DNA of 64,000 bases from Pseudomonas sp. (GCF_028293835.1 NZ_JAQGNX010000179.1:49169-113168), one strand, 5' to 3'; positions 2,685 through 53,941 are shown, counted from the first letter of the stretch. Notes: generated by a model not told the origin, from the sequence alone. Numbers and translations are program-made.

Positions 2685-4703
2685 TCAGCACGCCAGCGGC
2701 TGTAAAGGCGTCTCGGTTGCACACAGCCCGAGCACCGCATGGTAAGCGTCATGCACCGCGTCGCCAATTCGACCACCCCGGCGCGCATCGCCAATAGTCG
2801 TGACCGGCAGGTGTGCCTCCAGCAGCTGGTTCAACAAGGTTTCGTCCGGACTTCTGCCTTGGGCAATCAGCACGCCCAGGGTCTGGAGTTCGGTACGTTC
2901 GCCGGCGGTGTGCTGAAGCTCCACTCGGCCATCTTCGTGAATTCGCACGATGCTGCTGTTATCCAGAATGCGGATAGACGTGTTGCTGAACAGGCGTTGC
3001 TTCAGCACTCCGCGATAAATCATTTCGGCGGAGCGGGCCAGTTGCGACCGGGGCGAGCGGCTGACCAGCACCACTAAGTAACCTAGGTCACTTAACAGCT
3101 CTGCGGTTTCGCAACCGGTTTCGCCGCCGCCGTACACCAGTATTGGCAAGTTCGGGTCGGGCGCCGGAAGGCTAGCGATGTCCCCCATCAATAGTTCGTA
3201 CGCATCCAGCACTGGTCGGGTATCGATGCCGTCAATGGCAAGGCGCAACGCCCGACCGCCGATGGCAAGCAAGACAATCGCTGGCTGAGCCGGTCCGCCC
3301 AGCGTTGCCAGATCGATATGACTATTGAGGTAGACCTCAACCGCACTCTTGTCGAGTTGACGTATCAGATAACTGAGGTACCAATTCAGTTTGTCTTTGA
3401 AAGGCGGCGCTGCTGAAGCAATCAAACCTCCACCGAGGTCGCTGCGACTTTCGTGCAACTCAGTGGCAAAACCGGCCTGCTGCAACATCAACGCTGCGGC
3501 CATACCGCCAGGGCCACCTCCCACGACCACTGCGCGCTGACCACGACGAGCACCCGCGTCCGGGAGGCGGTCCAGTTCATGACCACTGCGTGGATTCTCG
3601 GCACAGCCGATGGTGCCGTGGGGGCCGGAGCTGATGGCGACACAATAGTTACAGGACGTGCAGGGTCTGATGTCCAGTGCCGCGCCGCGTCGTGCCTTGT
3701 TTGCCCATTCGGGATCGGCCAGCAACGGCCTGCCCAGCGCGATCATGTCGGCATCACCTTCACGAATGGCGCGTTCGGCGGTTTCTGGCCAGCGAATCTG
3801 TCCGACACTGATCACCGGCACGTCCACCGCTTCACGGATCCGCCGCGAGTAGGGCAGGCGCCAGCCTTCAGGTGCAGACATAGGCTCGATGACTTTGTCA
3901 AAGCTGGTCCAGCCCAGTCCGATAGACACATGCAACGCGTCTACGCCCGCAGACACTAGTTTCGGTGCGATGCGTACCATGTCGTCAATGCTCAGCCCCT
4001 GAGGGGTAAATTCGTCGGCCGAGAGCCGGTAGATCAGCGGGCGATCACCGATACTTTGGCGCACCCGCTCAATGACCCGGCGCGGGAAGTTCAGGCGTTT
4101 TTCCTCGTCTCCTCCCCACGCGTCGTTACGATGATTGCTGTAGGGAGACAGGAAAGCGGTCAACAGATAGCCATGGGCGCCATGTAACTCGAATGCCTGA
4201 TAACCGGCCAGTACGCCCAGCTCTGCGCTTGCGCCAAAACATTCAATCAGGTACTCGATTTGCTCTGGCGTCATGGCGCTCGCCACCAGGCGGTCGGGGG
4301 AAGAGCGTGAACTGACATCGCTGGGTGCCCAAGGCATTCCATCCACAACCAGTTCGCGCTTGGCGCCCTGGCCGCCGTGCTGCAATTGCAGGCAGGCCAC
4401 GGCGCCCGTCGAGGTTATGGCTTCGACCAAACGCTGATGGCCAGCGATATGGGAGGGGGACTCAAGGGTCAGCTGGCGATGTTCGGACCGGCCGCTGGCA
4501 GAGTCAACGCAACAGAACTCCACGACAATCATGCCGGTTCCACCTTTGGCACGCTCTCTATAGAAGGCGATTTGTTCCGGTGTCACGCGTCCATCCAGTC
4601 CACCCAGATTTGTCGACATCGGCGCCATGACTGTCCGGTTAGGGATAATCAGATTACGCAATCGAATGGGTTCAAAGAGACGCGGGTAGGGGTTGTTAGG
4701 CAT
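2685..4703 (-). CDS. Old yellow enzyme family NADH:flavin oxidoreductase with Fe-S and FAD domains (FadH/BaiH/TMADH-like)
   Basis: NRTVMAPM, ELHGAHGYLL, CTSCNYC...C Fe-S cysteines, VVVGGGPGGMAAA Rossmann motif, second GGGETG motif. Confidence 0.88.
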   Translation of the reverse strand: MPNNPYPRLFEPIRLRNLIIPNRTVMAPMSTNLGGLDGRVTPEQIAFYRERAKGGTGMIVVEFCCVDSASGRSEHRQLTLESPSHIAGHQRLVEAITSTGAVACLQLQHGGQGAKRELVVDGMPWAPSDVSSRSSPDRLVASAMTPEQIEYLIECFGASAELGVLAGYQAFELHGAHGYLLTAFLSPYSNHRNDAWGGDEEKRLNFPRRVIERVRQSIGDRPLIYRLSADEFTPQGLSIDDMVRIAPKLVSAGVDALHVSIGLGWTSFDKVIEPMSAPEGWRLPYSRRIREAVDVPVISVGQIRWPETAERAIREGDADMIALGRPLLADPEWANKARRGAALDIRPCTSCNYCVAISSGPHGTIGCAENPRSGHELDRLPDAGARRGQRAVVVGGGPGGMAAALMLQQAGFATELHESRSDLGGGLIASAAPPFKDKLNWYLSYLIRQLDKSAVEVYLNSHIDLATLGGPAQPAIVLLAIGGRALRLAIDGIDTRPVLDAYELLMGDIASLPAPDPNLPILVYGGGETGCETAELLSDLGYLVVLVSRSPRSQLARSAEMIYRGVLKQRLFSNTSIRILDNSSIVRIHEDGRVELQHTAGERTELQTLGVLIAQGRSPDETLLNQLLEAHLPVTTIGDARRGGRIGDAVHDAYHAVLGLCATETPLQPLAC

Positions 4704-44496: not shown

Positions 44497-44628
44497 ATGA
44501 AAATGACCTCTATTGCAGTTGCTCCCACCGCTCCTGCGTTGGGCCTTTCTGTCCGCGCAAAGGCGGGCGCAGCAGCAATGGTAGAGTGCAACCCTTCAGG
44601 TTTTGAGGAATACCCATGCCCCTTATAA
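44497..44628 (+). pseudogene. Short ORF with eroded signal peptide, possibly a CusF-like remnant
   Basis: AAAGGAAA RBS then MKMTSIAVAPTAPALGLSVRAKA; 43 codons; position just after the cusA fragment. Confidence 0.4.
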
Positions 44629-45632
44629 AACTACCGTGTCTGGCGCTTGCCTTTGCCCTACCGTTTATGGCCTTGGTCGCGCCTTTCGCGCAGGCCGCGA
44701 GTTATGGCCAAGAGCTTCAAGGCTTCCGATACCCTTACCCCGTGCAGCTGTTCGAACTCGAATCCCAAGGGCAGACCTTGAAGATGGGCTATATGGACGT
44801 CGCACCCACAGGTGTCGCCAACGGTCGCACCGCCGTGCTGATGCACGGCAAGAATTTTTGCGGCGCGACGTGGGAGGACAGTATCAAGGCCCTCAGCGCT
44901 TCCGGTTATCGGGTTGTAGTACCGGACCAGATCGGTTTTTGCACCTCGACCAAGCCTGAGCACTACCAATACAGCTTTCAGCAATTATCGGCCAACACCC
45001 ACGCACTGTTGGCCAGTCTCGATGTAACCAAAGCCACCGTCATTGGCCACTCCACGGGCGGCATGCTGGGTACTCGGTATGCTTTGTTGTATCCGGAGCA
45101 AACCGAGCAGTTGGTGCTGGTCAATCCGATTGGCCTGGAAGACTGGAAAGCCTTGGGCGTGCCGTGGCGCAGTGTCGATCAATGGTATGAACGAGAGCTT
45201 AAGCTAAGCGCGGAAGGCACTCGCCAGTACGAGCAAAGCACTTATTACGCTGGGCACTGGAAGCCCGAGTACGATCGTTGGGTGGACATGTTGGCCGGCC
45301 TGAACAGCGGACCAGGGCACAAGGTGGTGGCTTGGAACTCAGCATTGATTTACGACATGATTTTCACCCAGCCGGTATTTTACGAACTACCGAATCTCAA
45401 GGTGCCGACCTTGTTGATGATCGGTGACGCCGACACCACGGCCATCGGCAGTGACATTGCATCGCCGCAGGTGAAGGCCAGGATCGGCCATTACGATGTC
45501 CTCGGCAAGCAGGCCGCCAAGCTGATTCCGGGGGCCAGGCTGATCGAATTTCCCGGCAAAGGCCATGCGCCGCAGATGGAAGACCCTGCCGGGTTCAATA
45601 AGATACTGGTTGAAGCGTTGAGCCGGGGCTGA
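44616..45632 (+). CDS. Exported alpha/beta hydrolase
   Basis: Signal peptide; LMHGKNF, PDQIGF, GHSTGG, GHAPQ. Confidence 0.85.
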   Translation: MPLIKLPCLALAFALPFMALVAPFAQAASYGQELQGFRYPYPVQLFELESQGQTLKMGYMDVAPTGVANGRTAVLMHGKNFCGATWEDSIKALSASGYRVVVPDQIGFCTSTKPEHYQYSFQQLSANTHALLASLDVTKATVIGHSTGGMLGTRYALLYPEQTEQLVLVNPIGLEDWKALGVPWRSVDQWYERELKLSAEGTRQYEQSTYYAGHWKPEYDRWVDMLAGLNSGPGHKVVAWNSALIYDMIFTQPVFYELPNLKVPTLLMIGDADTTAIGSDIASPQVKARIGHYDVLGKQAAKLIPGARLIEFPGKGHAPQMEDPAGFNKILVEALSRG

Positions 45633-45645
45633 ACGACCTGGCCAT

Positions 45646-46473
45646 TTAATCGCCGTCTTTGGCAACGCCAGCACCAATGATGTGATGGCGTGCCAGAGAT
45701 GCCGCGACGAACCCCGAGGTTTTCATCTCTTCCACAAAGCTCGACAGGTAGGCCGCAACCGCCTCGCCTTTGGCCTTCGGAACGCCCATTGCTTGGCGGA
45801 TAACCATGAAGTGCGGCTCCACAATCCTCAGGCCGCCGACCCTTGTGGCGTCTTTTTCAAGTTGCTGGCGGATTCCGGAAGCCACGTCCAGGTGCTGATC
45901 CAGAAAGCCCTGAACGACCCCCTGAGAGGTGGCCACGCGCACGATCGTCGCGTTGTGCAGTTCACGGGTCAGGAACAAATCATAAGCACTGCCTTTGCTT
46001 GTTGCCACGGTAATGCCGGGCTGGTCGACCTGTTCCAGGGTGTTGATCGGTGAATCGGCCCGTACCGCATAAACACCTTCAATCAACACGTAGGGTTTGG
46101 TGAACTGGATGGCCTGTCCACGTTTGGGGTCGATAGCAAAAAACCCGACGTCGGCCTTGTCCTGCTCAACATTTTCGACTGATAGATTGGCAGAGGGGAC
46201 CACCACCAGTTGTAAACCAACGCCGAGCCGTTTTGCCAATTCTGTCGCAAGGTCAATGGAGACACCCACTGGCTTGCCGGTTTCCGGGTCCTGATTGGCC
46301 AGAATAGCGTTACCCAGATTGATTGATACGCGGAGCGTCCCGCTCGGGGCGAAGGTTGATGCGAGGGCGGGCGACAGCTGATTAGACGCCGAGCCAGCCC
46401 CATGACTGGCATCGGCTGCAATGAACGTTGCGGCAGTGAGGAACACGCGGAGTAACCGGTTGCGGTTGAGCAT
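45646..46473 (-). CDS. Orphan periplasmic substrate-binding protein (polar amino-acid type)
   Basis: MLNRNRLL signal peptide; GTLRVSINLGN, DVGFFAIDPKR, KGSAYDLFL; no permease or ATPase next to it. Confidence 0.8.
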   Translation of the reverse strand: MLNRNRLLRVFLTAATFIAADASHGAGSASNQLSPALASTFAPSGTLRVSINLGNAILANQDPETGKPVGVSIDLATELAKRLGVGLQLVVVPSANLSVENVEQDKADVGFFAIDPKRGQAIQFTKPYVLIEGVYAVRADSPINTLEQVDQPGITVATSKGSAYDLFLTRELHNATIVRVATSQGVVQGFLDQHLDVASGIRQQLEKDATRVGGLRIVEPHFMVIRQAMGVPKAKGEAVAAYLSSFVEEMKTSGFVAASLARHHIIGAGVAKDGD

Positions 46474-46630: not shown

Positions 46631-46692
46631 TCACATGTGAGCGATTGCGTCGTCCAGCACTCAAGCGTAGGGTGCTGACTTGTCACATGTGA
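46631..46692. promoter_or_regulatory. Two perfect TCACATGTGA palindromes upstream of yjfI
   Basis: Sites at 46631-46640 and 46683-46692, 52 bp apart, enclosing CAGCAC-N11-GTGCTG. Confidence 0.7.
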
Positions 46693-46710: not shown

Positions 46711-47331
46711 ATGGCTCGCAAAACTTCAACCGACTATATGCGTGAAATGCGCGCACGGCTGACGGCTGCGGGGTACGTCAAAAGGGAGCTTTACGTGCTT
46801 CCTGAAAACGCTGAGGCCTTGAGAAGTATCGAAAAATGTTTACGCCAGCCCTACTTGGGTAACCGAATAAAACTGGAGGAATTCATGACCGAAAATATCA
46901 ATTGGACGATCGATTCGCTGCACTCGGCGTTGGTGGAACTGGACGCGGTGAAAAGCAGTGAAATCGAGTTGAGCCTTGTCCAGGGTACCGAGCAGAGCTT
47001 GAGTCTGGTGATGAATAACTTCGGCGGCTTGCCGATCATCATCGCTATTGCCGGTGACCAGATTTTGGTGGATTCCGTGCTGGTCTATGCGTCTCAGGTA
47101 AAGGACGTCGCAGGGTTCAACGATACGGTTCTGCGCAGCCGGGACATTTTCCCGCTGTCATCGATCGGTATCGAAACGTTGCCTAACGGCGAAACCGTTT
47201 ACAACATGTTCGGCGCACTGAGCGCTGCCTCTTCGCTGACGGTCATCGTCCATGAAGTATTGACCTTGGCAGATAACGTGATTCGCGCCGCTGATGCCTA
47301 CGAAGACTTTCTAACCGCTGATCCACAGTAA
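46711..47331 (+). CDS. yjfI: YjfI/DUF2170 family protein with N-terminal basic extension
   Basis: C-terminal 148 aa with LPIIIAI, IFPLSSIGI, YNMFGALS; N-terminal MARKTSTDYMREMRARLTAAGYVKRELYV; position directly before pspA. Confidence 0.75.
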   Translation: MARKTSTDYMREMRARLTAAGYVKRELYVLPENAEALRSIEKCLRQPYLGNRIKLEEFMTENINWTIDSLHSALVELDAVKSSEIELSLVQGTEQSLSLVMNNFGGLPIIIAIAGDQILVDSVLVYASQVKDVAGFNDTVLRSRDIFPLSSIGIETLPNGETVYNMFGALSAASSLTVIVHEVLTLADNVIRAADAYEDFLTADPQ

Positions 47332-47346
47332 CCGGGAGACACATTA

Positions 47347-48054
47347 ATGAGCCTTTGGAAGAAAATGGTGACCGCTCTACGTGGTGGTGCCTCCGAGGTT
47401 GGCGAAGCAATCGTCGACGCTCAAGCATTACGAATTCTGGATCAGGAAATCCGTGACGCCGATGCCTCGATGCTCGCCGCGCGTAACCAGCTGATACAAA
47501 TCAAGGCCAAGCACAAGTTGTCCGTTCAGCGTGTGGACGAGCACAACAAGAACATCGCCAACTGGGAACAAAAAGCAGTCGCCGCGATGAATAAAGGTGA
47601 GGAAGGCCTTGCGCTGGAATGTGCTGAAAAGGTTTCAGAACTCACAGCGTTGCGCGATCAGGAGAAGGCCGCTGCGGACCAGTTCGGCGCTCAGGTCACC
47701 AAGTTGACGGCTCAGGTTACTAAAGCCGAAAGTCAGATCAAAGGCCTGCGCCAGCAAGCGGACATGGCCAAAGCCCGTGACAGCGTGCAGCGAGCGCAGA
47801 TCAACGCTGCTGCAGCGACTGGCGGCGCCAATGGTCGTCTGGAAACCGCTGTGGGTTCATTGGCGCGTATCAAGCAGCGTCAGGATGAGCAGGACGCCAA
47901 GCTTGAAGCCGCCGAAGAATTAGCCGATGCAGCCAACGGCGGCGATCTTGAACGTCGCCTGCAAGACGCGGGCATTGGTGCTAAAACCGGCGGGGCCGCT
48001 GACGTTCTTGCCAGATTGAAAGCGCAAAGCCAAGCGGGCAACTCGGGTCAATAA
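47347..48054 (+). CDS. yjfJ: PspA/IM30 (bacterial ESCRT-III) family protein, YjfJ-like
   Basis: MSLWKKMVTALRG, ILDQEIRDA, long coiled coil, LERRLQDAGI. Confidence 0.88.
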   Translation: MSLWKKMVTALRGGASEVGEAIVDAQALRILDQEIRDADASMLAARNQLIQIKAKHKLSVQRVDEHNKNIANWEQKAVAAMNKGEEGLALECAEKVSELTALRDQEKAAADQFGAQVTKLTAQVTKAESQIKGLRQQADMAKARDSVQRAQINAAAATGGANGRLETAVGSLARIKQRQDEQDAKLEAAEELADAANGGDLERRLQDAGIGAKTGGAADVLARLKAQSQAGNSGQ

Positions 48055-48064
48055 GCTGCGTCAG

Positions 48065-48101
48065 AAAGCGGCAGACGAGTTGCTCGTTCGCCGCTTTTTT
48101 T
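48065..48101 (+). terminator. Intrinsic terminator between pspA-like gene and rhomboid gene
   Basis: AAAGCGGC-AG-ACGAG-TTG-CTCGT-TC-GCCGCTTT followed by further T residues (T7 run). Confidence 0.75.
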
Positions 48102-48123
48102 GCCCGGCTTCGATGGTGCAGAC

Positions 48124-48684
48124 ATGATCGCCGGAAATGGACTACGAATAATCCTTGGGCTGGCTGGGTTGATGGTCGTGGCACAGGTAATTAACTCGCT
48201 GACTGCCAACAGCCTGCTGCACTTGGGGTTGGTCCCCAGGACGTTGTACGGGCTGCAAGGCATTGTGTTTGCACCCTTCCTGCACGGCTCTGTCCGGCAT
48301 TTGTTGGCCAACCTGCTGCCTTTTATCGTGTTGAGCTGGTTAGTGGCAACCGAAGGTGTTCAGCGTTACGCCCGGGTTGCGACGTTGGTGGCTTTGCTGG
48401 GTGGGCTGATGGTCTGGGTCATCGGTCGGCCTGTGATACACGTGGGAGCGAGCGGGGTAATCTTTGGTCTGTGGGCTTATCTTCTGGCCCGCGCCTGGTA
48501 TCAACGCAGTCTGCCAAGTTTTGCAATCGCCTTGATCACGTTGCTGGGCTACAGCGGATTGATCTTCGGTTTCATTCCGGTGCCCGGGGTCTCGATTGAG
48601 TCACACCTCAGTGGCGCGCTTGCCGGTATCGTTGTGGCCTGGCTGATGCACTCCAGGCGGCTGGTGGAAAAAAGCAGTGGTTAG
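48124..48684 (+). CDS. Rhomboid family intramembrane serine protease
   Basis: PFLHGSVRHLLAN, GASGVIFG (Ser), SHLSGALAG (His). Confidence 0.9.
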   Translation: MIAGNGLRIILGLAGLMVVAQVINSLTANSLLHLGLVPRTLYGLQGIVFAPFLHGSVRHLLANLLPFIVLSWLVATEGVQRYARVATLVALLGGLMVWVIGRPVIHVGASGVIFGLWAYLLARAWYQRSLPSFAIALITLLGYSGLIFGFIPVPGVSIESHLSGALAGIVVAWLMHSRRLVEKSSG

Positions 48685-48689
48685 GCATT

Positions 48690-49003
48690 TGTCAGCGCAG
48701 CCTTTTCGAAAGGTTCGGCTGGAGAGGTATCGGCATGTTGTTGTGCGTACACTTTGCCCTGTCGTACGCAATGCTTGAGCTGGTAAAGGCGCCACGCAAT
48801 ACCGACATACCCTGCATCACGATTTAAATACAACCTGCGGCGAGCTGTATGTACGGTTACGACAAGCGTTCAGCGCAACCCTCATTGGATATTGCATTCC
48901 AGGTGCCGTCGGTTTTGAAATAAATCTGGCTAACACCACGCCGGTGAAGGGCGGCGATATTTTCTACATTGCTTCGGCACGGCTTGAAGGAACAGCATTA
49001 TGA
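48690..49003 (+). pseudogene. Internally deleted ion (K+, RCK-type) channel gene
   Basis: One frame gives QRSLFERFGWRGIGMLLCVHFALSYAMLELV (TM1-like); another, from 48788, gives GATQY...TCGELYVRLRQAFSATLIGY...PVKGGDIFYIASARL-stop, whose TGA overlaps the yjfK ATG (ATGA). Confidence 0.62.
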
Positions 49004-49668
49004 GTTGGATCAAACGGGCTTTAGGCCTGGCGCCGCCGAAGCCAGCGCCAGGGTCAACAGCGATCAATGCAGCGGGGTTGCCGGGGCCTTTTGGTTTAGC
49101 AACCGGCCGAATGATGGACCTTGATGACTCGCTCACGCTGTTGCTGGAGGGTCATTCTGAATTGATCGTCCCCAACGAAGAGGTGGTGTGGTCAGTGGGC
49201 CGGATCGACCTGGGGCAATCCATGCGGCTGGTGCGTTTTTACTTCGAAGACGAAGACTACTGGATGCAGGCCACCATGAACGGCCCGGCGGCGGAAGATG
49301 TTCAGGACATCATTCTGTTCGGCTACAGCAGTGTGGTGACCATTAACAGTGAAGCGGAATTGAAGCGCTTGGTGGGTCCCGACTCGAAAATCGGTTTGCC
49401 GGTGTTCGAACATGACGGCTGGGAATATGAGCGTCAATGGGGTACGGAACAAGGCCAGACCGAGCTGACGCCGATGACCGAACAGATCGCTAATCCCGAC
49501 GGGGCCTACCGCATCGAGCACTTGAGCATGTTATACGCCCGGGATACCGGCTTGATAGACCGCCGCGAATTCCTGCTTCTTTCCGTCGAGGAAGACGAGC
49601 AGGGCGTTGTTTCCCTGAGTACCTCTCTCGGCGTAACGCTGCAATCCACTGACTTCACGGTCATCTAA
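49000..49668 (+). CDS. yjfK: YjfK/DUF2491 family protein
   Basis: PGPFGLATG, VGRIDLGQSMRLVRFY, YERQWG, EFLLLSVEE, SLGVTL; synteny. Confidence 0.78.
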   Translation: MSWIKRALGLAPPKPAPGSTAINAAGLPGPFGLATGRMMDLDDSLTLLLEGHSELIVPNEEVVWSVGRIDLGQSMRLVRFYFEDEDYWMQATMNGPAAEDVQDIILFGYSSVVTINSEAELKRLVGPDSKIGLPVFEHDGWEYERQWGTEQGQTELTPMTEQIANPDGAYRIEHLSMLYARDTGLIDRREFLLLSVEEDEQGVVSLSTSLGVTLQSTDFTVI

Positions 49669-49679
49669 AAGGAATTAAA

Positions 49680-50105
49680 ATGCTCGACGCCCTAAGCACG
49701 TCCCTCAACGGTCAGTCGGTACTGGGTTTTCTGATCTACATCGCGGTGGCCGCAATCTTGTTCGGCCTGTTTCAGTTGGCCTACACGCGTCTGACGCCGC
49801 ATAAGGAGTTTGCCCTCATCCGCGACGGTAACGTCGCCGCTGCTGTCGCACTGGGCGGTGCACTGATCGGTTTTGCATTGCCTGCCAGTAACGTCATCGC
49901 CTACAGCGTGAACGTGCTGGATGCCGTGGTCTGGGCCGTGATCGCCGCAGCCGTGCAATTGCTCGCGTTTACCGTGACCAGTCTGGTCTTGAAAGATTTG
50001 TCCGCACGCATCAGCCGAGGCGAGCTCGCCGCTGCCATCTACGCCGCCAGTGTCTCCATCAGTGTCGGTTTTCTTAACTCGGCCTGCATGACGCCCTCGA
50101 CCTGA
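49680..50105 (+). CDS. yjfL: YjfL/DUF350 family membrane protein
   Basis: YTRLTPHKEFALIRDGNVAAA, GELAAAI, GFLNSACMT. Confidence 0.88.
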   Translation: MLDALSTSLNGQSVLGFLIYIAVAAILFGLFQLAYTRLTPHKEFALIRDGNVAAAVALGGALIGFALPASNVIAYSVNVLDAVVWAVIAAAVQLLAFTVTSLVLKDLSARISRGELAAAIYAASVSISVGFLNSACMTPST

Positions 50106-50131
50106 TTGGCCTGTCTCGAAAGGAGTATTCG

Positions 50132-50854
50132 ATGAGACGTAGTTCCCTGAAACTGGTCCTGGCCAGCACGCTTCCTCTTGCCATCAGCGCGTGCAGCAAA
50201 ACCGAGGAAGTCACGGCGCGGCAGACTTACCCTACGGTCCAGGCCTGTGTCGATCAAAAGGTCCCGGTAGATGTTTGCTCGGACGCCTACATCAAAGCGT
50301 TGGCTGATTATCGCCGGACCGCGCCTACCTACGATAATGCGGCTGCTTGCGAAGCGGATTTCGTGCCCGATTATTGCCAGCAGAATTCCGATGGCAAGTT
50401 CATGCCCAAGCTGGGCGGTTTCGAACTAGCGCTTTCAGGTAACGTGCCCACGTCTCAGCTCGAGGCTGCCAAAGCCCAGGCGACTCAGTCTGGCGGCGAT
50501 AGTGCCGGAGGCTTTAATGGCAGTGGGCTGCTCATGGGGATGCTGATCGGCAATATGCTGAGCGGCAACGGTGGGGGCGGTCGCTATTATTCGCAGCCGG
50601 TTTACCAGTCCCGTGATTCCCGTGGTGCTTATCAAACCTCGACGCTGTCCAGGCAAATTGAGCAGGGCAAGACCTTCGGTAATTCTACCCAGGCCCGTTC
50701 CAGTTCCACCGGCAGCTACACCCAAAGTACGTTGGGCCGCAGCCTGGGTAATTCCTCAGTCTCGTCTTCTGTGTCCCGTGGTGGTTTTGGTAGCCAGGCG
50801 ACCGCGCGAAGCGGTTGGGGTGGGAAAAGCAGCGGTTCGAGCTTTGGCGGTTAA
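50132..50854 (+). CDS. yjfM: YjfM/YgiB (DUF1190) family lipoprotein
   Basis: Lipobox ISAC; two Cys pairs; CEADF motif; Ser/Gly-rich tail with SRGGFG. Confidence 0.8.
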   Translation: MRRSSLKLVLASTLPLAISACSKTEEVTARQTYPTVQACVDQKVPVDVCSDAYIKALADYRRTAPTYDNAAACEADFVPDYCQQNSDGKFMPKLGGFELALSGNVPTSQLEAAKAQATQSGGDSAGGFNGSGLLMGMLIGNMLSGNGGGGRYYSQPVYQSRDSRGAYQTSTLSRQIEQGKTFGNSTQARSSSTGSYTQSTLGRSLGNSSVSSSVSRGGFGSQATARSGWGGKSSGSSFGG

Positions 50855-50868
50855 CCGGGACGGTATCC

Positions 50869-52026
50869 ATGAAAAAAATCAGTATCGACGAACGTCCTGA
50901 TTGGCGCCAAACGGCCGAGCGCGAGGGTTTCGACTTTCACACCATTGACGGCGAGCGCTACTGGGACGAGCGCGCCTACTACCAATTCACCGAAGAACAG
51001 ATCACCCGCGACATCGAAGCGCCGACCCAGGAGCTTCATGCAATGTGTCTGGATGTTGTGGAGCGGGTCGTGGAAAGCGAAGAACTGTTGACCCGGCTCG
51101 CCATCCCTCCACCATTTTTTGATCTGGTCCGCACCTCTTGGAAAGAAGGCCATCCGCATCTGTATGGACGCTTTGACTTCAGCTACGACGGCGTCAATCC
51201 GGCTAAATTGCTGGAAGGCAACATGGACACGCCGACCTCGGCTTACGAGGCTGGCGCTTTTCAACTGATCTGGCTGGAAGAGCAAGTCGCCTGCGGCGTC
51301 CTGCCAAGGCAGGCCAGCCAGTTCAATTCCCTGGCCGAGGACCTGGTTCGAGCGTTTACCGCCATCAAGCAAGGCGGGCCGTTTTACTTCTCCGCCATGT
51401 CGGGCTCCAGCGAAGACCGCGGTACCACCGACTTCCTCCGAAAAATGGCCGAGCACGCCGGCATCGAAACCCGGCACATCGACATCGAAGACATTGGACT
51501 TGATTCTCACGGAAGATTCGTCGACCTGGAGGGACGCTGGATTGAACGAATTTTCAAGCTGCATGCCTGGGAACATGTATTCCATGAGCCCCACGGGCAG
51601 GCGATTCCGGCGTGCGATACCCAGTTCATCGAACCGGCCTGGAAATCGATTATCTCCAACAAAGGTATTCTGCCGCTGTTATGGGAATACCACCAAGGCC
51701 ACCCAAACCTACTGCCATCCTTCGTCGATCAAGACCCGCGAGCGCCGGTGCCCAAGGGCTGGGTGCGCAAACCCTACTTCTCCCGGGAAGGCGCCAACAT
51801 AGAAATTCGGACCCCTGGCGATCAAGTCATTTTCGAAGATGGCCCCTACAACGACGCCCCCTACATCCTGCAAAAGTTCGCCCCACTGCCTCGATTTGGT
51901 GACAGCTACACCCTGATTGGTTCATGGGTAGTGGGGGACACCGCCTCAGGCATTGGCATTCGTGAAGATGACAGTTTGATCACCAAGGACAGCAGCCGGT
52001 TTTTGCCGCATGTGGTGATCGATTAA
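50869..52026 (+). CDS. yjfC: Glutathionylspermidine synthase-like ATP-grasp protein (YjfC/YgiC)
   Basis: YWDERAYY, LYGRFDF, LLEGNMDTPTS, SNKGILPLLW, KPYFSREGANI, IGIRED; no amidase domain. Confidence 0.9.
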   Translation: MKKISIDERPDWRQTAEREGFDFHTIDGERYWDERAYYQFTEEQITRDIEAPTQELHAMCLDVVERVVESEELLTRLAIPPPFFDLVRTSWKEGHPHLYGRFDFSYDGVNPAKLLEGNMDTPTSAYEAGAFQLIWLEEQVACGVLPRQASQFNSLAEDLVRAFTAIKQGGPFYFSAMSGSSEDRGTTDFLRKMAEHAGIETRHIDIEDIGLDSHGRFVDLEGRWIERIFKLHAWEHVFHEPHGQAIPACDTQFIEPAWKSIISNKGILPLLWEYHQGHPNLLPSFVDQDPRAPVPKGWVRKPYFSREGANIEIRTPGDQVIFEDGPYNDAPYILQKFAPLPRFGDSYTLIGSWVVGDTASGIGIREDDSLITKDSSRFLPHVVID

Positions 52027-52291
52027 GGTTTACCCACACATGCCCATCGGGGGCAAAAAACCATTTGATAACAGCGCGATCAGTCCGCTAAAAGTTAGAT
52101 GTATCAAGAAGTTACGATGCGGGACATTACAATCTACCTCGTTTATTCTCAGCGCCCGATAATTTCACCCGATAAGTGTCACCCAAGCAGCTGAAGCCAA
52201 TGACTAACAAAAAGTCAGCGCAGGAGGGACATACATGTGAGGCCGATGACGTTAGTTGGCTTTGTATGGCATCTACCCAGGTATTAACTGC

Positions 52292-53941
52292 ATGTTGAAG
52301 AAAGCAAATACGGCCCTGTTGGGCCTGGCCCTGTCCTTGGGGCTTATGACTGTCCAGACGGCTGAAGCAAAAACGGTTGATGTGCTGCTCATCGGTGGCG
52401 GCATCATGAGTGCAACCTTGGGCGTTTGGCTCAACGAACTTGAACCCGACTGGTCCATGGAGATGGTCGAGCGCCTTGACGGTGTCGCCGAAGAAAGCTC
52501 AAACGGCTGGAATAACGCCGGTACCGGTCACTCGGCTTTGGCGGAGTTGAACTACACGCCAGAAGACAAATATGGCAAGGTCGAGATCCCCAAGGCCATC
52601 GAGATCAATGAGGCGTTCCAGATCTCGCGTCAGTTCTGGTCGTGGCAGGTCAAAAATGGTGTCTTGAACAATCCTCGCTCCTTTATCAACTCCACGCCGC
52701 ACATGAGTTTTGTGTGGGGCGATGACAACATCAAGTTCTTGAAGAAGCGCTACGAAGCGCTGCAGGCAAGCCCGCTGTTCAGTGGCATGCAGTACTCGGA
52801 AGACCCGGTACAGATCAAGAAATGGGTTCCATTGATGATGGAAGGACGTGATCCGAATCAAAAGATCGCGGCCACTTGGACGCCACTGGGTACCGACGTC
52901 AACTTTGGCGAGATCACCCGCCAGTTCGTCAGCAATCTACAAACCAAGCCCAATTTCGACCTGAAGCTGTCGAGCGAAGTGCGGGACATCGCGCGCAATG
53001 CGGATGGCACGTGGCGTGTTTCTTACAAGAATTTGAAAGACGGCACTGAAACTCAGACCGACGCCAAGTTCGTATTTATCGGCGCGGGCGGTGGTGCTTT
53101 ACGCCTGCTACAGAAGTCCGGTATTCCAGAAGCCAAGGAATATGCAGGCTTCCCGGTGGGTGGCTCGTTCCTGGTGACCGAAAACCCGGCGATCACCGAA
53201 CAGCATCTGGCCAAGGCCTATGGCAAAGCATCGGTCGGCGCACCACCGATGTCGGTTCCGCACCTGGATACCCGTGTGCTGGATGGCAAGCGCGTAATCC
53301 TGTTCGGTCCGTTCGCGACCTTCTCGACGAAGTTCCTGAAGCAAGGTTCTTACTTCGACCTGCTCAGCAGCACCACCACACACAACGTCTGGCCGATGGC
53401 CAAAGTCGGTGTCGAGCAGTACCCGCTGGTTGAATACCTGGCTGGTCAGTTGATGCTGTCAGACGATGACCGCATGAATGCGCTGAAAGAATACTTTCCT
53501 AACGCCAGGAAAGAAGACTGGCGCCTGTGGCAAGCCGGTCAGCGAGTACAAATCATCAAGCGCGATGACGAGAAGGGCGGCGTTCTGAAATTGGGCACCG
53601 AAGTCGTCAGCTCCAAAGACAACAGCATTGCCGGGCTGCTCGGCGCATCGCCTGGCGCCTCCACTGCCGCGCCGATCATGCTCAGCGTGCTTGAGAAGGT
53701 TTTCAAAGACAAAGTCGCGACCCCGGCCTGGCAAAAAAAGCTGCACCAGATTGTTCCGAGCTACGGCACCAAACTCAACGATGACCCGGCGCGGGCGTAT
53801 CAAGAATGGACGTATACCGCGGGCGTGCTTCAGCTGGATACGCCGCCAGTGATTGACCAGGCCGTAACTCCACAAAGCACGGCTCCGACGCAAGCAAAGC
53901 CAGGGAAAAAGAGCAATCCTGAGGCCGATATAGCGCTGTAG
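52292..53941 (+). CDS. mqo: Malate:quinone oxidoreductase
   Basis: [52 protein letters not shown]. Confidence 0.95.

Follow-up and report, generated by a model that had tools for sequence, protein, structure and literature searches.

A rhomboid protease clade associated with YjfI-PspA operons, and a decayed potassium channel, in the yjfIJ-yjfKLMC cluster of Pseudomonas

PspA/IM30 proteins are bacterial relatives of ESCRT-III that function in membrane repair; for the YjfJ branch of this family and its polyamine-ligase partners, we know of no mechanism. The closest described systems are the yjfI-yjfJ-yjfK-yjfL-yjfM-yjfC genes of Escherichia coli K-12 (b4181-b4186), the third group of phage-shock protein (PSP) operons in Ravi 2024 and the bac operon of Pseudomonas aeruginosa. 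Here, we analyze a cluster of this kind from Pseudomonas sp. (GCF_028293835.1), located at positions 46711-52026 on the plus strand of a 64,000-nucleotide stretch of DNA (NZ_JAQGNX010000179.1:49169-113168), hereafter the window. Open reading frame (ORF) calling combined with Pfam and NCBIfam searches identified seven intact genes, the 5' to 3' order of elements being yjfI, a pspA-like gene, a hairpin, a rhomboid protease gene, a channel remnant, yjfK, yjfL, yjfM and yjfC. On balance, we lean toward the view that this locus is a stress-inducible inner-membrane maintenance unit made of three separable parts.

The E. coli K-12 cluster contains the same six families as the window, in the same order and on one strand, with protein identities of 24-49%, the highest (49%) being that of YjfC. 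This collinearity implies that the arrangement is not due to chance. The two clusters also differ: that of E. coli includes neither a rhomboid nor a channel gene, its YjfI (133 residues) lacks the N-terminal head present in the window protein, and its YjfM stops at WGG, whereas the window YjfM carries an additional Ser/Gly extension. In E. coli, the yjfI promoter drives co-expression of yjfIJKL, which are up-regulated in heat-adapted strains (PMC12492005); co-expression of the genes was one of the points on which the original prediction staked itself, and for these four genes the outcome is positive. The class described in Ravi 2024 combines a CesT/Tir(DUF2170)-PspA module with an ATP-grasp ligase, a ligand-gated K+ channel, DUF350, the lipoprotein DUF1190 and DUF2491, and in the supplement of that study the channel of Alteromonas occupies the same slot as the remnant in the window, between PspA and DUF2491. 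The window encodes DUF2170, PspA, DUF2491, DUF350, DUF1190 and the ATP-grasp ligase in order on one strand, as does the third group of Ravi, exemplified by Alteromonas addita AVL56_13815, from which it differs in that the channel is a pseudogene and is preceded by a rhomboid gene. The cluster represents the conserved yjfIJ-yjfKLMC set as it occurs in Pseudomonas and, among PSP operons, falls into the 'CesT/Tir-PspA + ATP-grasp ligase' class. The original prediction had recognized this gene set, its order on one strand and its E. coli counterpart, and had stated that the cluster itself is not new; the family assignments and the collinearity with b4181-b4186 bear out the former, and the published operon class, with its channel in the same slot, the latter. 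What is new here are the channel pseudogene, the clean loss of the channel in the nearest relative, the two operon contexts of the rhomboid clade and the constraint on the rhomboid where the channel is missing.

The bac operon of P. aeruginosa, a representative of the CesT/Tir-PspA + YqiJ + flotillin + giant AAA+ (+ PLD) type, affects biofilm formation and virulence (PMC10948618). Like the window cluster, it is led by genes for a head-bearing DUF2170 protein and PspA. The bac-type PspA is 45-50% identical to that of the window, the rhomboid is ~42% identical and belongs to the same clade, and both operons have operator palindromes of one type. The remainder of the operon (NfeD/YqiJ-like, SPFH/flotillin, DUF3686 AAA+ giant and PLD) is unrelated, and there is no ligase arm. 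A more distant parallel is provided by E. coli tolC-ygiB-ygiC, in which a gene for a DUF1190 lipoprotein is immediately followed by one for a YjfC-type ligase, as in yjfM-yjfC of the window (PMC11762307). This set includes no PspA, YjfI, YjfK or YjfL and is linked to an outer-membrane channel instead.

The distribution of the rhomboid was surveyed in 301 Pseudomonas species genomes, with the presence of the cluster counted by yjfK. The cluster was found in 124 genomes and the rhomboid subfamily in 86, always as a single copy. Most of the copies (n = 61) lie between pspA and yjfK, 18 are located directly after the gene for a DUF3686 giant, and seven are found elsewhere, so that 79 of the 86 reside in an operon led by the YjfI-PspA pair, whether of the yjf type or of the bac type with flotillin and giant AAA+ genes. 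In the bac-type loci, the content of which was read in six of the 18 cases and in one named record, the order is head-bearing DUF2170, PspA, NfeD/YqiJ-like membrane protein, SPFH/coiled-coil protein, DUF3686 giant, rhomboid and PLD; the DUF3686/AAA+ giant comprises ~1750 residues, and the rhomboid gene overlaps it by 4 nt. Genes for YjfK, YjfL, YjfM and YjfC are missing from these operons. This gene content identifies the operon as one of the P. aeruginosa bac type and as the first class of Ravi. The genome to which the window belongs carries no DUF3686 gene. The giant gene is also found directly 5' of the rhomboid gene in Providencia, Xenorhabdus, Limnobaculum, Hahella and an Alteromonadaceae genome, the last two of which additionally encode DUF2170 ~9.5 kb upstream. 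Because the two architectures share only YjfI and PspA, the comparative evidence ties the rhomboid to this pair and not to the ligase arm, and argues that it is specific neither to the channel nor to YjfM. On this point, the original prediction finds no support in the form of a single obligate coupling of PspA, cleavage by the rhomboid and ligation: the rhomboid is optional, being present in 61 of the 124 clusters, and its clade also populates bac-type operons devoid of YjfKLMC.

It seems to us quite unlikely that the rhomboid is a housekeeping protease whose position has been inherited within the genus with no functional coupling to its neighbors. Such a scenario would readily accommodate the repeated loss of the gene, as well as the cyanobacterial, Gemmatimonadota, Actinomycetota, Proteus and Photorhabdus homologs, which have no such neighbors within 8 kb. 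It is harder to reconcile with the occurrence of the rhomboid in two operon architectures with only YjfI-PspA in common, with the 4-nt overlap with the giant gene, or with two loci in which the rhomboid adjoins yjfI-pspA in other orientations: in L017, from another family, the homolog is located divergently upstream of yjfI, and in L063 (Methylomarinum) it abuts pspA-yjfI. Furthermore, the rhomboid remains single-copy in every genome, and in the four genomes with both operon types the only copy is kept in the yjf cluster.

The rhomboid gene of the window (48124-48684, plus strand) encodes a short intramembrane serine protease of 186 residues, and its ATG at 48124 is backed by the alignment of homologs. 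The protein scores 78.2 bits against the Pfam profile of the rhomboid serine proteases (S54), for which the cut-off is 22.6. The motifs H54/H59-x3-N63, G-A-S110-G and H161, which supply the TM2 HxxxN motif, the GxSG serine and the TM6 histidine of this protease family, are invariant across six homologs, and a profile search aligned them with the corresponding motifs of Haemophilus influenzae GlpG (PDB 2NR9), including its GLSG serine and its AAH histidine; a single-sequence search of the rhomboid against the PDB gave no match, and a profile was required. The catalytic serine and histidine described at the outset as intact correspond to S110 and H161. With 17.9 bits against the GlpG equivalog (cut-off 250) and 30 bits against that of rhombosortase (cut-off 84) in NCBIfam, the protein is, as judged by profile scores, outside both of these named subfamilies. 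The ratio of nonsynonymous to synonymous substitution rates (dN/dS) between the rhomboid of the window and that of the nearest relative (locus L030), neither of which has a channel, is 0.089, and this constraint equals that on the rest of the cluster; the rhomboid is thus under purifying selection in a channel-less lineage.

Phylogenetic analysis grouped 55 rhomboid sequences into one gammaproteobacterial clade with 97% support, to which the window rhomboid and the linked copies named above belong, apart from the long-branched sequences of L017 and L063, which lack a settled placement. The cyanobacterial, Gemmatimonadota and Actinomycetota homologs fall outside this clade and have neither yjfI-pspA nor DUF3686 neighbors, and no conserved rhomboid neighbors were found outside Gammaproteobacteria. 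In the literature we searched, no paper joins a rhomboid with DUF2170, YjfI or DUF3686, and the word 'rhomboid' is absent from the text and one supplement of Ravi 2024 as well as from the BacA paper (PMC10948618). Three of the loci have peculiarities of their own. In a contig of Phytomonospora sp. NPDC050363 (L054), a DUF3686 giant is accompanied by a rhomboid that nests inside Providencia with 98% support, which suggests assembly contamination or a recent transfer into an actinobacterium. In L017 (4871-5684, minus strand), a 95-codon ORF resembling a small regulator overlaps the start of the rhomboid gene. Finally, in the bac-type operon of L118, an ORF for a soluble protein of 79 residues (4429-4668) is located between the flotillin-like and giant genes, and consequently the published bacA-F count is ambiguous, in that bacF could be either the giant or the rhomboid, neither of which the BacA paper describes.

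The 315-bp spacer between the rhomboid gene and yjfK holds a 311-bp remnant of a potassium channel gene with two transmembrane segments (48699-48988, plus strand). Intact channels occupying this slot in relatives comprise 350-370 residues, with a TVGYG filter and an RCK/TrkA tail. In tblastn searches, channel residues ~27-57 match 48699-48785, whereas 48782-48988 encodes, in a different frame, the counterpart of residues ~283-359. The E value was 1e-12 when the whole window was searched and 2.6e-11 when the genome was searched independently, which confirms the channel remnant that had been suspected in this position. The start codon has been lost, and ~227 internal codons have been deleted with a change of frame; the deletion took the pore, including TVGYG, and most of the RCK domain, and the ATGA stop/start overlap with yjfK was kept. 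The channel is, therefore, an internally deleted and frameshifted pseudogene, and no functional K+ channel is encoded between PspA and DUF2491. The nearest relative, L030 (86% DNA identity), contains the same genes, with 16 bp between the rhomboid gene and yjfK and no channel remnant; it has lost the channel cleanly. Decayed copies were also detected in other Pseudomonas species (G210:C33:24072-25117; G079:C5:10616-10753; G301:C8:304052-304162; L032 8594-8812); these channels are frameshifted or fragmentary, indicating that decay has been recurrent and independent.

To our knowledge, physiological substrates have been established for very few bacterial rhomboids. In Bacillus subtilis, the rhomboid YqgP (GluP), which carries additional cytosolic and extracellular domains, is coupled to the cation channel MgtE in membrane protein quality control, and in mitochondria the rhomboid PARL is coupled in the same kind of process to the SPFH scaffold SLP2 and the AAA+ protease YME1L. 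We regard YqgP-MgtE and PARL-SLP2-YME1L as functional analogies for the two contexts of the rhomboid clade and claim no homology of the partners. The window rhomboid differs from YqgP in being a bare 186-residue core, according to a Pfam scan, the sole domain search made. By analogy with YqgP and MgtE, the rhomboid could be a dedicated regulator or quality-control protease of the neighboring K+ channel, which in the window would have outlived its partner. The two genes adjoin in relatives, with a 7-bp gap or a 4-bp overlap, and among the 124 clusters 37 have the rhomboid with an intact channel, 24 the rhomboid only, 12 the channel only and 51 neither, an association that is pronounced when phylogeny is left uncorrected (odds ratio 6.6; Fisher p = 3e-6). 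We nevertheless consider a dedicated channel protease highly doubtful, given that the same counts leave 24 of the 61 in-cluster rhomboids without a channel and 12 channels without a rhomboid, that the dN/dS value cited above was obtained between two channel-less genomes, and that bac-type operons contain the rhomboid and no channel.

The ligase arm has its own candidate substrate. The yjfC gene (50869-52026, plus strand) encodes a stand-alone ATP-grasp acid-amine ligase of 385 residues (Pfam GSP_synth, 477 bits), the only copy in the genome. The protein matches YjfC of PDB 7UK6 over residues 1-384 (412 bits) and YgiC of PDB 7UK8 over its full length (396 bits), and it is 49% identical to E. 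coli YjfC. GSP_synth is its sole domain, in agreement with the claim that the ligase has no amidase domain, and against the profile of the bifunctional GspSA (NF007801, cut-off 882 bits) it reaches 138.6 bits over profile positions 242-450 of 619. Judging from these alignments, the window protein is orthologous to YjfC and YgiC, the peptide-spermidine ligases of E. coli. RefSeq names the product of E. coli yjfC a peptide-spermidine ligase, and according to Pederick 2023, as cited in PMC11762307 and PMC10948618, YjfC and YgiC display peptide-spermidine ligase activity and make no glutathionylspermidine. The original prediction had cited the latter point correctly on this account; its description of the function as unresolved is partly outdated, as the citing papers credit Pederick 2023 with the ligase activity.

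The preceding gene, yjfM (50132-50854, plus strand; Pfam 101 bits), encodes a DUF1190 lipoprotein with the lipobox L-A-I-S-A-C, its signal peptide ending in MRRSSLKLVLASTLPLAISAC in agreement with the rule [LVI][ASTVI][GAS]C; a Cys at this position is present in all 20 YjfM homologs inspected, out of a set of 120. The protein consists of an acidic domain with four Cys residues, a Gly-rich segment of weak hydrophobicity, GSGLLMGMLIGNMLSG, and a basic tail rich in Gly, Ser and Thr, which has a net charge of +8 and ends with SRGGFGSQATARSGWGGKSSGSSFGG. The C-terminal peptide reads ...ARSGWGGKSSGSSFGG in the window and ...ARGHWGG in E. coli. The tail motif RGG(F/Y)G...AR..WGG is invariant in the Pseudomonas homologs sampled, and the tail ends with GG in 96 of 120 of them and in E. 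coli. Given that DUF1190 and ligase genes are also paired in ygiB-ygiC, and given the conservation of the tail motif, the YjfM tail is a plausible substrate of YjfC, provided that it is cytoplasmic. The terminal Gly-Gly was also considered as a strict ligase handle, which is ruled out by the 23 of 120 homologs ending with SS.

These features could be assembled into one linear pathway, in which the rhomboid cuts YjfM within the Gly-rich segment, the freed cytoplasmic tail is modified with spermidine by YjfC, and PspA stabilizes the membrane. In its layout YjfM resembles a type-I rhomboid substrate, the acidic four-Cys domain and the +8 tail being compatible with an N-out/C-in topology; the conservation of the tail motif from E. 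coli to Pseudomonas and the recurrence of the lipoprotein-ligase pair would fit as well. We regard such a pathway as unlikely, since half of the Pseudomonas clusters and that of E. coli K-12 retain YjfM and YjfC without the rhomboid, the same rhomboid clade is found in bac-type operons without YjfM or YjfC, and the hydrophobic segment of YjfM is short and weak. As bac-type operons lack YjfM, it cannot be the general target of the rhomboid, and it stays a candidate in the yjf cluster.

The leading gene, yjfI (46711-47331, plus strand), encodes a DUF2170 protein of 206 residues with a CesT/Tir-like chaperone fold (Pfam 160 bits). Residues 63-203 match PDB 8Q8O, annotated as 'DUF2170 family protein' (E = 2e-34), and are preceded by a conserved basic N-terminal head of ~60 residues evident in the alignment. 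The window protein scores 235.1 bits against the BacA equivalog (NF050185, cut-off 300 bits), which the bac-type DUF2170 homolog in L110 passes with 351 bits; by this measure, it is a head-bearing YjfI paralogue and not BacA itself. Two exact 10-bp palindromes TCACATGTGA (46631-46640 and 46683-46692, plus strand), 80 and 28 bp 5' of the yjfI start, are candidate operators for the promoter of the cluster. They belong to the family TYACRYGTRA, with variants TCACGCGTGA, TTACATGTGA and TTACATGTAA, which usually occurs in two copies upstream of yjfI and precedes this gene not only in most yjf-type loci but also in those of the bac type and in one other family. Among the loci examined, the palindromes are found only upstream of genes for YjfI proteins with the conserved basic head (L018-L046, L110, L114, L116 and L118, before yjfI or bacA), and the palindrome family is probably the operator of this head. 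In a P. aeruginosa bacA mutant, the Bac proteins over-accumulate (PMC10948618). Given this phenotype and the way the palindromes track head-bearing YjfI, it is reasonable to infer that YjfI represses its own operon by binding TCACATGTGA through the N-terminal head. A PDB profile search with the head gave no match, and the head of the window protein itself has no match in Pfam. A sigma-54 promoter, as reported for bacA, was also sought and rejected: no -24/-12 pattern occurs within 260 nt upstream of yjfI in the window and in nearly all relatives, and a scan of the whole window with the sigma-54 consensus yielded 333 matches versus 353 expected by chance.

The second gene (47347-48054, plus strand) encodes an ESCRT-III-like PspA/IM30 protein of the YjfJ type with 235 residues, which aligns with PF04012 at 145.6 bits (cut-off 33.9), residues 2-227 covering profile positions 1-217 of 220. 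Against the profile of canonical phage-shock PspA (TIGR02977), it scores 23.8 bits, compared with a cut-off of 242.95, and it is 33% identical to E. coli YjfJ; on these scores, it is a YjfJ-type paralogue and not canonical PspA. An intrinsic-terminator-like element follows the gene (48068-48101, plus strand), in line with the terminator proposed for this position: the hairpin GCGGC.GACGAG/CTCGTT.GCCGC (48068-48094), with 11 pairs and one bulge per strand, runs into seven T (48095-48101). The 76-nt stretch containing it folds with -30.2 kcal/mol (z = -2.85), the core hairpin contributing approximately -20 kcal/mol. A simple consensus scan for promoters and terminators performed at chance level and missed this real hairpin. 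The rhomboid ATG follows 22 nt past the T run, leaving no space for a promoter, and the hairpin would thus have to be leaky; it is probably an attenuator. A comparable hairpin and T run is present 3' of pspA in ~15 of ~30 yjf-type loci, two of them from other families, and this recurrence in about half of the loci, including distant ones, is consistent with an attenuator that maintains an excess of YjfI and PspA.

We propose that the three parts of the maintenance unit operate as follows. In the first, the YjfI head would bind the two TCACATGTGA operators, probably resulting in autorepression, and the CesT-like body would chaperone or restrain the ESCRT-III-like YjfJ polymer until the membrane is damaged, with the leaky terminator after pspA holding both proteins in excess over the products of the downstream genes. 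The second part would be the rhomboid as an accessory intramembrane protease of the YjfI-PspA pair, which most likely tunes or resets the response through cleavage of a partner or client anchored in the membrane and for which the channel is not an obligate target. The third would be a membrane-associated arm of YjfK, YjfL, YjfM and YjfC, in which YjfC is predicted to join spermidine to a peptide carboxylate at the expense of ATP. If the conserved basic Gly/Ser tail of YjfM faces the cytoplasm, it would be the leading candidate substrate. It is possible, although we are inclined to doubt it, that the rhomboid clade as a whole is the dedicated intramembrane protease of YjfI-PspA membrane-repair systems, moving between flotillin/giant-AAA+ and polyamine-ligase operons and cutting an anchor or client to switch or reset the PspA assembly.

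A number of observations weigh against the three-part scheme. The rhomboid is missing from 63 of the 124 Pseudomonas clusters and from that of E. coli K-12, as it is from two example operons in the supplement of Ravi 2024, and it is absent in six of 28 genomes with the giant gene, having been lost at least four times; the tree of the cluster proteins likewise shows repeated loss of both rhomboid and channel. Within the rhomboid clade, 15 of the 55 members, all from outside the genus, lack the relevant neighbors within 8 kb, and linkage within the genus partly reflects shared ancestry. No membrane protein is common to the two operon types, and both YjfI and PspA are devoid of transmembrane segments. 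Read-through of the terminator is deduced solely from the lack of room for a promoter and from the constraint on the rhomboid gene. The YjfI head is poorly modeled by AlphaFold2 (predicted local distance difference test score, pLDDT, 66.9; predicted template-modeling score, pTM, 0.31), too poorly for a fold search, and its resemblance to Pfam MazE-like proteins is weak (E = 0.033, in two of 16 members). In YjfM, the tail ends with SS instead of GG in 23 of 120 homologs, the hydrophobic segment is a weak one, with a Kyte-Doolittle value of 1.25 across 15 residues and a core of ~11, and, given the lipoprotein signal, the tail may be periplasmic and beyond the reach of YjfC.

If the rhomboid clade does prove to be the dedicated protease of YjfI-PspA repair systems, it would parallel in bacteria the rhomboid-SPFH-AAA+ arrangement of mitochondria, and bacterial rhomboids would gain a defined physiological job. 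A single-copy clade found in two otherwise unrelated operons of the PspA pair offers a concrete experimental entry for the PspA and rhomboid fields alike, and, as the naturally channel-less strain demonstrates, both the rhomboid and the ligase arm persist where the K+ channel is gone. A protease and an operator shared with the bac operon would matter beyond this soil-type Pseudomonas.

The two remaining genes of the cluster encode a soluble, beta-rich DUF2491 protein (yjfK, 49000-49668, plus strand; Pfam 161 bits) and a DUF350 inner-membrane protein (yjfL, 49680-50105, plus strand; Pfam 120 bits; 33% identity to E. coli YjfL). The AlphaFold2 model of YjfK is beta-rich, with a mean pLDDT of 83.6, and a Foldseek search against the PDB returned no meaningful match (best E = 6.6e-3; template-modeling score 0.2-0.3), the weak hits being vaguely similar to the ligand-binding folds of Bet v 1, YceI or lipocalin; on the basis of this model, the fold is without a PDB representative. 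With respect to anti-phage defense, PADLOC models matched none of the families across all seven cluster proteins.

Upstream of the cluster, the window carries genes for an alpha/beta hydrolase and a periplasmic binding protein (44616-46473), a flank common only to the window and L030. Downstream is a malate:quinone oxidoreductase-like gene (52256-53941), which was found in no other locus, the L030 contig stopping inside yjfM. Inheritance of the cluster appears patchy, because the neighborhoods differ among the other species and only 124 of the 301 genomes carry it. In Pseudomonas silvicola T1-3-2 (CP093280.1; L025/L051), a tandem duplication has occurred within the cluster (L025 9123-12380), which created a chimeric ORF, in which the N-terminal half of yjfC is fused to a C-terminal portion of yjfK, and, after it, another yjfL-yjfM-yjfC set.

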